Assembly (NCBI GenBank): GCA_011364925.1
Contig: RDOA01000049.1
Span: 1-26,866, forward strand
Reading direction: 5' to 3'
Length of the DNA: 26,866 bases
Origin: Promethearchaeota archaeon
Lineage (GTDB): Archaea; Asgardarchaeota; Lokiarchaeia; Sigyniarchaeales; SOKP01
The notes under the pieces were generated by a model. The model saw only the letters and a program-made list of their open reading frames with translations, did not search any database and had not been told where the DNA came from. Of this stretch, positions 18,309-21,272 are shown piece by piece (the first letter of the stretch is position 1; every line of letters begins with the position of its first letter). The position numbers were made by a program, and so were the translations under genes.

Positions 18309-21272
18309 TTATTTGGGTCGATATTCATGGCGTTCGATTATTTCTAATTGCATATTTTTATTTAGCTTCGTAAAGTAAGCGTTATAACCAGAAACTCTAA
18401 CTAATAACCACCGATAATCCATCGGATTAGCCATAGCATCTCTTAACGTATCTGAGGATATTACATTAAACTGCCACTGCATTCCATTCAAATCAAAAAA
18501 GCTTTGAACATAACTCGTAAATAAATCCAAAGTTTTTTCGTGAGAGTCTCCCGGATGTGGTACTAATTTTACATTGTATGACGCATTATTAGCCATTTTC
18601 AAATAATCTAAAGCCGCAATGCTCTGAATACTTGGAAGTAATATATCAGTTGTGCCTGGAGCTGGAGTTAAACCAGGTGTTAATGCTTTTCCTTTTTTCC
18701 TGCCAGATGGTAAGGCTCCCGTAAGCATGCCAAACCCGGTGTGATAACTAATTGACCAATAACCAACAAGGTATTTCCCTCCTCTGTAATTTTCTGCAGA
18801 ATTGTAAATAGTATAGCAATAATCAACGATATACTGTGCCATCTCAACAGTACCCTCTTCACCAGATCCAAATTTTGGAACTTGTTCGATCTTATTCAAT
18901 ATATCTTCGTATCCTTCGAAATCGTTTTTGATTGCTTCAAAAAATGTCGCAAAATTGAACTCTTTTTTATTATAGACTAAATCCCTTATTACTAATAAGC
19001 TATCGACTACATCTGTAAGAGCTACAAGAGCAACACCAGAAGTGTTGTAAATAGCGCCACCTTTTATTAGATCTTTCCCTCTTTCTAAAGGGCCCTCGTA
19101 AAAACCAGACAACAAGGGAGTAGGATGAACGTATTCGTGCGCTTCACCAAGGAAATTATTGATCTCAATTGATTGCTCGGCTAAGTATTTTAGTTGAGTC
19201 TTATAAGCATCGAGAAAATCATTAAAGGTAGGGAAACTCGAACGAACATCTCCGGTTTCGATACCCATCATTTCGCCAGTTAAAGGAATAATACCGTTAT
19301 GTAATGCCATTTCTAGTGGAGCAACCAAATTTAAAAGCATACAATTTGTATGACCGTAATGTTTTCCTACAATCGTAGGTTCTACGCATCCAGTAGTTGC
19401 CCAATCTCTTGCATGTTCTAACGAAAATCCTTCGTGGACCAAGGCTTCAATCATTGTCTTATCGTTATGAATGCTTGGAGAAGCTCCCATGTTAAGGTTT
19501 ACTTCAGTAAGTCTTCTTAGATATTCTTTAGAGTTAATCCCAGAATAATATCGAGCATTCATATTTGGATCTTGAAACCCTAGCATTTCGTTCGCCTTTA
19601 AGATAATAAAGGACATATCATTCACGGCATTGCTGCCTTTCTCATCTACTCCCCCCACAGTTACAGTATCATCTGAAGAACTACCACCAAATAATTTCCA
19701 ACCTACATTCGGCATTAAAGGATCGTGATCATTAATACGAATAAACAAAGATCCAACTAATTCAATAGCTTTTTTAATTATTTTTTGTTTCTCTGCTTCA
19801 TCCTTTGCTTTTTCGATGTCTTTAAGGAAAAAAGGTTGTAGCATCTGATCTAGTCGTCCAATTGATAAAGCAGAATTTGCATTTTCGCAATGAAGACAGA
19901 CAAAACTCGTCCAAATCGATTGAATTGCTTCGTATAAAGTGTCCGCTGGTTTTGCTGGTACTTTAGCACATATTCTTGCAAGTTCTTTTAACTCTTCTAT
20001 TCTTTTTGCTTGTTCTGGATCGTTTAAATCCATAGATTCTGCGAGTCTAAGGGCTTCTTCACTTAAATGCATAGAATACTCTAACACGCCCTCCATTGCG
20101 GTTTGTACTGCCTTGTAGAAATTTTGTTTTTCAAGATTATCGGTTTCTTTTTCTAATTTCTTTGCTTTGTTTATTACGCTTTCTAAACCTTCGTTTAGCA
20201 CCATAGGGAATCCCGGTACGGTGTGGCTAATCGCATTGGTTTTCATCATGAAGTAGAAAACCCATCCTTCTTCTAACGCTTGACTTTTTGGATAGTTATT
20301 TTTTGTTCTACAATATTCCCTTACATTTCGTTCCATCCAGTAAGGAAATACTTCAAGACTTAACGTATCGGCATCTTTTTCTGAAATATCGTTGGGATTT
20401 AATTCCCGTTCAGCAATCGTTTTCAATTCAGGCCATATTGCTGTAGCTATTAATTCAGGATACATTGGAATACCAACTTCTTTCGAAGTTGTAGAACCTG
20501 CAATAAGGTGTTTATCGTGAATTATTGGTTTTTTGTTAGACATGATATATCTCACTGCTCCTGCTTGTCTTAACTCAGGATCGAAAGGATTTCCAGATTT
20601 GTCGAATTCAAAACCATTCTCCTTATGGTATTCCGTAACTAATTTTGCTCTCTCGACACATATTGCCGGTTTTAGGGCAAATCGTCTATTTTTTAAGTAT
20701 TTTAACCTAGGAAAGTCATTTATTGAATATTGAGCCAGAAAAGGATCTTTTAATACTTGAACATTGTCAATTTTACGGTTTAGACTCTCATTAACGAGTT
20801 TTCTATGATCAATATCTTTGATTGGATAAAGCAATCGATTTTCGGGTCCTTTATAATCTTTTATTTTAGCTCCCATTACGAGCGATGTGAGATAAGAGAA
20901 TTTAGTGAGATAACTCATATTTCCTACATAACCCATCTCATTTGTTAAGAGGTAATCCAGTGATTCTTCGGCACTTTTATTGTAAAGATTAGCCAAAGTG
21001 GCTTTATCTTTGTAATATATCGTAATATTCGGATTATCTATTTTACCATCAGCGACAGTCATTTTTCCATCTTTAAAAATTACGTAGACATTAAAAGCAT
21101 CATCCTTAGTCGTGAATTGATATTTAGCGTCAAAATAAAAACCTGTCTTTTCATTATATATTTCTCGTCGCATTTTCCTTCGTGTGTCGAAGATCATGGC
21201 GAGTAGGTTTAGCTGTTCTTTAAAATTCTCGAGCTCTTTTTCTACATCTAATACTTGCATAAGCATATTCAC
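18309..21272 (-). CDS. Glycyl radical enzyme (PFL-like, eliminase-type GCVEP) with N-terminal SCP2-like domain, 987 aa
   Basis: Gly loop LLVRVSGYNAYF (Gly962, codon 18387-18389), Cys loop WATTGCVEP (Cys629, codon 19386-19388), ICVERA, IGRLDQ, GALPSGR, QFNV; N-terminal ~135 aa SCP2-like. GTG start at 21272, alternative ATGs at 21266 and 21260. Confidence 0.95.
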   Translation of the reverse strand: MNMLMQVLDVEKELENFKEQLNLLAMIFDTRRKMRREIYNEKTGFYFDAKYQFTTKDDAFNVYVIFKDGKMTVADGKIDNPNITIYYKDKATLANLYNKSAEESLDYLLTNEMGYVGNMSYLTKFSYLTSLVMGAKIKDYKGPENRLLYPIKDIDHRKLVNESLNRKIDNVQVLKDPFLAQYSINDFPRLKYLKNRRFALKPAICVERAKLVTEYHKENGFEFDKSGNPFDPELRQAGAVRYIMSNKKPIIHDKHLIAGSTTSKEVGIPMYPELIATAIWPELKTIAERELNPNDISEKDADTLSLEVFPYWMERNVREYCRTKNNYPKSQALEEGWVFYFMMKTNAISHTVPGFPMVLNEGLESVINKAKKLEKETDNLEKQNFYKAVQTAMEGVLEYSMHLSEEALRLAESMDLNDPEQAKRIEELKELARICAKVPAKPADTLYEAIQSIWTSFVCLHCENANSALSIGRLDQMLQPFFLKDIEKAKDEAEKQKIIKKAIELVGSLFIRINDHDPLMPNVGWKLFGGSSSDDTVTVGGVDEKGSNAVNDMSFIILKANEMLGFQDPNMNARYYSGINSKEYLRRLTEVNLNMGASPSIHNDKTMIEALVHEGFSLEHARDWATTGCVEPTIVGKHYGHTNCMLLNLVAPLEMALHNGIIPLTGEMMGIETGDVRSSFPTFNDFLDAYKTQLKYLAEQSIEINNFLGEAHEYVHPTPLLSGFYEGPLERGKDLIKGGAIYNTSGVALVALTDVVDSLLVIRDLVYNKKEFNFATFFEAIKNDFEGYEDILNKIEQVPKFGSGEEGTVEMAQYIVDYCYTIYNSAENYRGGKYLVGYWSISYHTGFGMLTGALPSGRKKGKALTPGLTPAPGTTDILLPSIQSIAALDYLKMANNASYNVKLVPHPGDSHEKTLDLFTSYVQSFFDLNGMQWQFNVISSDTLRDAMANPMDYRWLLVRVSGYNAYFTKLNKNMQLEIIERHEYRPK

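Follow-up and report, generated by a model that had tools for sequence, protein, structure and literature searches.

The closest described systems to the enzyme reported here were the eliminases and isomerases among the glycyl radical enzymes (GREs). It has been established that all of them retain a CXE motif, which is their hallmark, and that in glycerol dehydratase (GD) Glu435 deprotonates the C1 hydroxyl while His164 protonates the departing hydroxyl (PMC13450708). The isomerases YbiW and PflD open a ring ether, and the C-O bond beside the carbinol is cut by ketyl beta-elimination (PMC13450708). According to the same 2026 review, all characterised members of the group resembling pyruvate formate-lyase (PFL) were bacterial, the archaeal clades were unassigned, and neither a lipid substrate nor a lipid-binding domain was listed (PMC13450708). 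Our full-text literature searches found no paper that connects GREs to ether lipids or to an SCP2 or sterol-carrier domain. Here we describe a 987-residue GRE (P0001) encoded in a stretch of 26,866 nucleotides (hereafter the window; contig RDOA01000049.1 of assembly GCA_011364925.1) from a Promethearchaeota archaeon. The protein carried an SCP2-fold lipid-carrier domain at its N-terminus, and we predicted it to be an oxygen-sensitive GRE 1,2-eliminase whose specificity pocket is new. On balance, we favored a C-O-cleaving, diol-dehydratase-like 1,2-eliminase that would attack a water-insoluble lipid, delivered by its own SCP2 domain, at the polar end that bears a hydroxyl. The fusion with a lipid carrier, together with an active site unlike those of the characterised enzymes, suggested that it probably removes the polar end of a greasy molecule by oxygen-free chemistry.

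At the sequence level, P0001 is a member of the PFL-like GRE superfamily. It matched the PFL-like PF02901 (E 1e-157) and Gly_radical PF01228 (E 6e-22) families and contained the GRE barrel. The segment RVSGYNAYFTKLNKNMQLEIIER of its glycyl radical domain fitted the superfamily fingerprint RVxG[FWY]x6-8[FL]x4Qx2[IV]x2R (quoted in PMC13450708), the catalytic Cys629 was invariant, and an activase gene adjoined it. The full-length AlphaFold model had a predicted local confidence (pLDDT) of 81 and a predicted TM-score of 0.87. Residues were numbered from the annotated GTG start at 21272. Since the closest homologues were 983 residues long and began at a later Met (MQVLDVEK, four codons after the annotated GTG; window 21260-21272), translation may in fact begin at this ATG. 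In this case the annotated GTG may be four codons too early, and the numbering would shift by -4.

The first-pass annotation had read the single-Cys GCVEP loop, without two adjacent Cys, as a sign that this was a CxE-type eliminase rather than a true PFL. Both parts of this reading held. Cys629 and Glu631 were seen and were both invariant, so that P0001 had the CXE feature of 1,2-eliminases and isomerases, and the His at the GD His164 position was also there. The fold was closest to eliminases: alignment of the model with VIA-align gave Z scores of 42-46 to propanediol dehydratase (PD), GD, CutC, and HypD, 31-35 to MASS/BSS, and 27 to PFL. The best solved sequence relatives were Archaeoglobus fulgidus PFL2 (2f3o, 1e-115), HpyG (8id1), PD (5i2a), GD (1r8w), and HypD (6vxc). 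In a HMMER alignment, GD residues His164, Cys433, and Glu435 were kept as His350, Cys629, and Glu631, and five other positions were changed: Ser282 to Ala468, Tyr339 to Asp534, Asp447 to Asn643, Tyr640 to Trp839, and Ser642 to Ile841. Namely, from the set of substrate residues of GD and PD (His164, Ser282, Tyr339 or Phe in PD, Asp447, Tyr640, and Ser642 or Val in PD) only the His was retained. Since the CXE Glu and this His were kept and the other sites were changed, the catalytic set of a C-O eliminase appeared to be intact and the specificity residues new.

It had also been proposed that the active site matched no known GRE class. The specificity positions of P0001 differed from each of GD, PD, HypD, HpyG, A. 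fulgidus PFL2, and PflD, and its scores were below every NCBIfam equivalog cut-off. Specifically, it reached 412.7 bits against a cut-off of 1050 for CutC (TIGR04394) and 420.5 against 1100 for HypD (NF043068), whose strand motifs were also unlike those of P0001. For the models NF048011 and NF048009, which cover the C-S lyases IslA/IseG/HpsG and the dehydratase HpfG, the scores were 367 (HpsG) and 366 bits (HpfG) with a cut-off of 1000; enzymes of this group grip their sulfonate with two Arg and a Gln. The remaining scores were 384 against 1109 for PflD/YbiW (PRK09983), 281 against 1100 for IAD, 194 against 1150 for HPAD, and 116 against 994 for PFL (TIGR01255). The PFL2-3 subfamily model TIGR01774 gave 537 bits, below its cut-off of 678. 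Thus, the residue differences and the missed cut-offs confirmed the proposal for the classes tested.

These results also bore on a published label. In a study of Hermodarchaeota, Asgard GREs of the same general kind (five proteins, possibly of another family) were called alkyl- or benzylsuccinate synthases, which add fumarate, because they had a single Cys and were 29-33% identical to AssA/BssA (PMC8163825). For P0001 such an activity is extremely unlikely, given that the CXE Glu and the dehydratase His were invariant. The model was also closer in fold to the eliminases than to the succinate synthases (Z 42-46 vs 31-35), although the fold score alone does not exclude membership. Moreover, in the characterised X-succinate synthases genes for small [4Fe-4S] subunits adjoin that of the catalytic subunit (PMC13450708), whereas no free-standing small Cys-rich ORF of this type was found between positions 16000 and 21500. 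Finally, the partner gene encoded an aldehyde oxidoreductase, not the beta-oxidation of succinate derivatives.

All the motifs quoted in the first-pass annotation were found in the 987-residue open reading frame (ORF) where it had placed them (Table 1), and they were invariant or almost so in 34 relatives. In the alignment of these relatives (A1, 34 sequences at 49-91% identity) the invariant residues were H350, E463, N464, S470, R473, F528, G530, S532, S533, D534, C629, V630, E631, H638, H641, T642, N643, W839, S840, S842, H844, and G962, and Asp535 was near-invariant. Such invariance of the candidate active-site residues indicated that the fingerprint was a selected feature and not noise. 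Three remoter SCP2-fused relatives (P0138, P0131, and L043) had ISHT, EN.N, FGGSSSD, GCVEPT, and WS.S.H, with the SSSD core of strand 3 recurring in all of them. A further SCP2-carrying GRE relative, P0215 (985 residues, from the search with the N-terminal domain), had GGAMQP replacing GCVEP. With both catalytic residues, Cys and Glu, missing, this protein may be an inactive paralogue.

The reference motifs that the annotation had given for comparison were near but inexact, since GD (1r8w) has IESNGHSISPARFDQ, FGGYPMYQN, and GWHDSAFFNL; by alignment, PD has ESSGHSISPGR and FAGYSLFQN. The claim built on them, that bulky aromatics had given way to small residues and left a wider pocket, was half right. 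On strand 3 (Y336 to S531 and Y339 to D534) and strand 6 (W445 to H641 and F450/F451 to L646/L647) aromatics were lost. However, strand 8 was bulkier than in GD, gaining Tyr838, Trp839, and Tyr843 in place of L639, Y640, and I644.

Comparison with individual relatives gave a similar picture. GD (Clostridium butyricum, 1r8w) and PD (5i2a, 9rco) shared with P0001 the barrel, the Gly and Cys loops, the CXE Glu, and the GD-164 His, and were its best structural matches (Z 44-46); an aldehyde product is likely in P0001 as well. In contrast to them, P0001 had changed specificity residues at 28-30% identity and an extra SCP2 domain with linker of about 187 residues, and its family was partnered with a tungsten-type aldehyde:ferredoxin oxidoreductase (AOR) and not with microcompartment or alcohol-dehydrogenase genes. 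A. fulgidus PFL2/PflD (2f3o), the function of which has been debated, was archaeal like P0001, had the CXE motif, the His, and Ala at the GD-282 position, and was the best full-length match in the PDB. Unlike P0001 it was without SCP2 and had Asn, Asp, and Tyr in place of Asp534, Asn643, and Trp839. The PflD/YbiW isomerases (8id0, 8yjo, 8id7) shared the CXE motif and gave the best PDB matches to the core of P0001 (residues 440-660), and their strand-2 ESNASSLSLGR resembled ENANSALSIGR. However, they act intramolecularly on a phosphorylated cyclic sugar ether, and their strands 3 and 6 read FAGFPTGY and GLHD.

These comparisons were relevant to the direct ether lyase suggested in the first-pass annotation. 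Such an enzyme would take a hydrogen from the free C1 carbinol of archaeol, of glycerol dialkyl glycerol tetraether (GDGT) cores, or of dialkylglycerols and expel the C2 alkoxide, giving phytanol or a fatty alcohol plus 3-alkoxypropanal. The loss of an ether oxygen by ketyl beta-elimination is already accepted chemistry in YbiW and PflD (PMC13450708). Among the PDB chains PflD was marginally the best match to the core, but its lead was small (E 3e-32 vs 1e-29 to 2e-28 for other eliminases). An AOR together with a crotonase could handle 3-alkoxypropanal, and the hosts of the family, Asgard archaea and Desulfobacterales, make ether lipids. On the other hand, two long chains would need room in the pocket although strand 8 was bulkier than in GD, and polar Asp, Asn, Ser, and His residues were found where the alkyl groups would lie. 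We considered direct ether cleavage unlikely.

The N-terminal domain of P0001 was a genuine SCP2 domain, as the first-pass annotation had assumed. Its score on Pfam SCP2 PF02036 missed the gathering threshold (16.0 bits < 21.3), but the fold of the predicted model confirmed the assignment. With the AF2 model of residues 1-186, the Foldseek matches at E <= 2e-3 were SCP2-fold chains, namely AF1534 (3bn8), UbiJ (6h6p), the alkylsulfatase SdsA1 (2cfu), MFE-2 (1ikt), and insect and mammalian SCP2, at E 1e-5 to 4e-4 and TM 0.6-0.68 on the target. P0173, a relative of this domain, scored 21.7 bits on PF02036 (threshold 21.3). In SdsA1 and UbiJ, too, an SCP2 fold is attached to or serves an enzyme for long alkyl or isoprenoid chains, although their catalytic chemistry is unrelated, and in P0001 the domain precedes a radical enzyme N-terminally. 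The linker between the domain and the barrel had a pLDDT of 38-68, and regular secondary structure was absent from it in both models. When only the domain was searched against 1.8 billion representatives, the hits were other GRE fusions as well as many free-standing proteins 150-180 residues long; the search of the ESM Atlas gave sub-threshold leads only.

A sister GRE family, 37-43% identical and with its named loci in Desulfobacula and Desulfobacterium bins, was without the N-terminal fusion. In 12 of its loci (L049, L050, L052, L053, L137-L141, L144, L145, and L151) an ORF of 165-177 residues was located between the GRE and the activase genes (e.g., L137:12447-12944), and it was homologous to the N-terminal domain of P0001 (hhalign probability 98%, E 3e-13). 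Since the SCP2 module was fused in one family and encoded by an adjacent gene in the other, the carrier evidently works together with the enzyme, and this pattern argues for a working partnership. A split or selenocysteine-containing GRE in L049-L053 was considered and rejected, because the frame in L052 continued through RVSGY to a normal stop and the next ORF was the stand-alone SCP2-like protein. A DUF6765 gene was present directly or one ORF upstream of the sister-family GRE in L049, L050, L052, L053, and L144.

In the bacterial homologues of P0001 the first helix was strongly hydrophobic, with a Kyte-Doolittle value of 1.6-2.4 over 19 residues versus 0.05-0.36 in archaea, which suggests membrane contact, perhaps an anchor. 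This helix was seen within the first ~30 GRE codons of L028, L030, L033, and L039 (e.g., VSVYLFLLSLKLLGLLFMV); the archaeal helices were amphipathic. It is conceivable that SCP2 does no more than anchor the protein to the membrane, or is a structural appendage, and that the eliminase acts on a small soluble polar substrate, as would suit the polar pocket residues and the weak sequence match to SCP2. We regarded this as quite unlikely, since the SCP2 module was kept, fused or adjacent, over wide divergence and its conserved positions were largely hydrophobic or aromatic.

Further evidence came from the genes accompanying the GRE. We pooled 58 genome and 76 metagenome loci and called and clustered their ORFs; 118 of the loci, from Asgard archaea and Desulfobacterales, had an SCP2-type GRE. 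The activase gene adjoined the GRE in 64 of these 118. An AOR gene was present in 50. Among the loci that reached 12 kb (54 in total), 30 had the AOR and 41 had an AOR, a crotonase, or a ligase. Across archaea and Desulfobacterales the gene orders with AOR were GRE-activase-AOR, AOR-GRE, AOR-TetR-GRE, and GRE-AOR. In most Asgard loci the AOR belonged to one orthogroup, being 53-77% identical to the copy in our genome and at most 39% to the next-best paralogue. Other partners were less frequent: crotonase and phosphoesterase were each found in 14 of the 118 loci (the latter as 10 metallophosphoesterases and 4 HAD-type enzymes), a FadD-like acyl-CoA synthetase in 7, and a TetR repressor in 6. 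The HAD-type proteins of L030, L082, and L083 scored above the NCBIfam cut-off for the phosphatase family resembling the N-terminal domain of soluble epoxide hydrolase (sEH); this phosphatase family acts on lipid phosphates. Taken together, the partner genes outlined a putative route from lipid phosphate to lipid alcohol, aldehyde, acid, and acyl-CoA, followed by a crotonase step. In three loci (L083, L084, and L148) the sequence by eye also contained an apparent selenophosphate synthetase gene near the GRE; the GREs of these loci were closest to that of the Desulfobacterales locus L039 (78-89% identity).

The same partners could serve a C-N lyase for lipid amino alcohols (e.g., sphingoid bases), where abstraction of the C1 hydrogen and loss of ammonia from C2 would give a 3-hydroxy aldehyde to be passed into beta-oxidation by AOR, CoA ligase, and crotonase. 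For 3-hydroxyacyl-CoA a crotonase is the natural choice, and the invariant Asp534 with the near-invariant Asp535 could hold the ammonium group. However, P0001 retained the dehydratase His, a position at which CutC has Asp, and no recurrent aminotransferase or ammonia-handling gene was found in the related loci. Only one GRE C-N eliminase has been known so far (PMC13450708). Ammonia elimination appeared highly unlikely.

A more lineage-specific partner was a flavoenzyme of the CrtI family, found in 26 of the 118 loci, all of the Loki type, with an FAD/NAD/2Fe-2S reductase alongside in 25. The location of the pair varied (upstream of the GRE in some loci, downstream of the AOR in others), and it was sometimes duplicated; the host genome had it three times, including window 21441-24232 and C62:6862-12380. 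It has been reported that a COG1233 flavoenzyme, a 2Fe-2S ferredoxin, and a reductase (CtmAB-EF) perform the oxygen-independent allylic hydroxylation of limonene (PMC4109377). The resemblance of the CrtI/reductase parts to this limonene dehydrogenase raised the possibility that the GRE dehydrates a terminal vicinal diol of an isoprenoid or long chain to an aldehyde bound for beta-oxidation. The diol would be supplied by the flavoenzyme/reductase pair and hydratases, or it would be a phytane-type diol from the environment. The pair accompanied the GRE and moved with it, the window added a CrtC-type hydratase and an SDR, and AOR, CoA ligase, and crotonase would suit a fatty or isoprenoid acid. 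However, the pair was missing from the bacterial and other Asgard loci, and the CrtC, the SDR, and also the HTH_10 regulator of the window were absent from all 58 genome loci searched with the window proteins. Polar pocket residues beside C3 were also unsuited to a plain hydrocarbon chain. We judged this alternative improbable.

The favored reaction, C-O elimination at the polar end of a lipid, can be formulated in steps that we infer from GD. The activase would make a radical on Gly962, which would be passed on to Cys629, and the Cys629 thiyl radical would abstract a hydrogen from the carbinol carbon. Glu631 would deprotonate the carbinol hydroxyl and His350 would protonate the leaving OH or OR on the adjacent carbon. 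The product radical would then regain a hydrogen from Cys629 to give the aldehyde. Upstream, the phosphoesterases probably bare the free hydroxyl from a lipid phosphate. Downstream, judging from the neighbours in other loci, the dedicated AOR would oxidise the aldehyde to the acid, the acyl-CoA synthetase would form the CoA ester, and the crotonase would process it.

As the substrate class we would prefer glycerolipids that have lost their phosphate and contain a non-hydrolysable (ether) bond. Glycerol ether lipids were attractive because esters need no radical chemistry, because both host groups, Desulfobacterales included, make ether lipids, and because phosphoesterases would expose the hydroxyl and a crotonase could expel the second alcohol at the end of a series of 3-alkoxypropanal, acid, and CoA ester. 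A mono-alkylglycerol would be dehydrated to 3-alkoxypropanal, whose ether would be removed later, by beta-elimination once the CoA ester has formed; from a 2-O-alkyl lipid (e.g., archaeol) the enzyme would expel the alkoxide directly. Elimination of an ether has a precedent among GREs (PMC13450708) and would be one of several readings that fit equally well. In its full form, the family would provide the missing oxygen-free route for the breakdown of glycerol ether lipids (archaeol, GDGT cores, and bacterial alkylglycerols) in anoxic sediments, in which radical 1,2-elimination at the glycerol head, oxidation by AOR, and a crotonase-type beta-elimination free the alkyl chains. We put this forward tentatively, as a rather unlikely proposal.

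Several observations weighed against lipid C-O elimination as we propose it. The active-site loops of the AlphaFold model had a pLDDT below 50, and SCP2 domains can serve membrane docking too. The pocket was mostly polar (Asp534, Asp535, Asn643, Ser531-533, His641, and His844), so that the bound group might not be a glycerol ether but a sugar, polyol, phosphate, or amine. The AOR orthologue of the host genome was absent from the GRE locus and was found on contig C65, at its end, with lysine aminomutase genes as uninformative neighbours; moreover, AOR genes were abundant in these genomes, with 16 AFOR_C matches in this one. The phyletic co-occurrence of the GRE and the AOR orthologue was modest once relatedness was considered: among 201 genomes 10 had both, 9 the GRE only, and 5 the AOR only, counts that were confounded by relatedness.

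The features of the locus are listed in Table 1. The region at 13243-17240 of the window contained genes for a radical SAM protein, an SDR, a CrtC-type hydratase, and an HTH_10 regulator, where relatives had, after the activase, the AOR with or without a Roadblock-domain gene. The second radical SAM protein was present in few related loci (L010, L016, and L143). An FAD_binding_4 neighbour was examined as a possible ether-lipid enzyme of the alkyl-dihydroxyacetone phosphate synthase type, but this was not supported: its only PDB matches were weak ones, to LctD/GlcD. The window also encoded a HEAT plus leucine-rich-repeat protein (431-1684) as well as HTH_10 and IF-2B proteins, and had about 32% G+C, a combination in keeping with a Loki-type Asgard genome.

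Table 1. Features of the SCP2-fused GRE and its neighbours in the window
Feature	Residues	Position	Strand	Basis
SCP2-fused GRE, P0001 (987 aa)		18309..21272	-	ORF and translation, Pfam, homologues
N-terminal SCP2-fold domain	~1-135	20868..21272	-	AF2 domain model, Foldseek, hhalign
Low-confidence linker, SCP2 to barrel	~136-187	20712..20867	-	Two structure models
Ten-stranded GRE barrel	190-848	18729..20705	-	Pfam, VIA-align
Motif ISHTVPG	348-354	20211-20231	-	
His350 (GD His164 position), proposed general acid for the leaving group	350	20223..20225	-	HMMER alignment to 1r8w
Strand-2 motif ENANSALSIGRLDQ	463-476		-	
Strand-3 motif LFGGSSSDDTVTVGG; Asp534 at GD Tyr339 position	527-541	19650..19694	-	
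Cys loop GCVEP; catalytic Cys629, CXE Glu631	628-632	19377..19391	-	
Strand-6 motif GHTNCMLLNL; Asn643 at GD Asp447 position	640-649	19326..19355	-	
Strand-8 motif GYWSISYHTGFG; Trp839 and Ile841 at GD Tyr640 and Ser642 positions	837-848	18729..18764	-	
Glycyl radical domain, Gly962 in RVSGY	865-968	18369..18680	-	Pfam Gly_radical
Gly loop RVSGY	959-963		-	
GRE-activating radical SAM enzyme with ferredoxin-like insert		17378..18277	-	TIGR02494, 290 bits (cut-off 174); Fer4
Second radical SAM protein, at AOR site of relatives		16089..17240	-	Pfam; context, not core
Divergent CrtI-family flavoenzyme and FAD/NAD/2Fe-2S reductase pair		21441..24232	+	Pfam/NCBIfam; lineage-specific partner

Homologues of about 987 residues were found at 62-96% identity, with annotations limited to formate acetyltransferase or PFL-family protein. 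They were common in Asgard bins (Loki/Promethearchaeota, Hermod-, Thor-, Hod-, Odin-, and Freya/Jordarchaeota) and occurred in Desulfobacterales and Desulfomonilia at 62-67% identity. With the N-terminal domain as the query, the SCP2-GRE fusion was detected in 19 of 201 genomes of the phylum, including 13 of 40 in the family of the host, 7 of 15 in its genus, and 4 of 6 genomes of one other family. Such a patchy distribution suits an accessory catabolic trait and not core membrane synthesis. The host genome itself had 8 GRE paralogues, and the N-terminal extension was on P0001 only; the paralogue sites were C93:6879-8822, C49, C27 (two), C48, C97, and C16. The paralogue at C93:6879-8822 had the HypD-like motifs RAPGHTV, TYTDFCN, GCVEVGAFGKE, and LLPTTVHIYFG, and is probably a hydroxyproline dehydratase.

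The GRE family was conserved at 62-96% identity between Asgard archaea and bacteria of the sulfate-reducer type, with its own lipid carrier and a predicted fixed route downstream to acyl-CoA. A fumarate-adding, hydrocarbon-activating role was unlikely for this family, and this bears on the published "alkylsuccinate synthase" label of similar Asgard GREs. If the proposed ether-lipid route is true, P0001 and its relatives would be the first GREs acting on lipids and also the first archaeal ones to have a defined function. An ether lipid as the substrate would bear on the oxygen-free breakdown and recycling of archaeal and bacterial ether lipids, and would affect both the reading of sediment lipid proxies and our view of what Asgard archaea live on.

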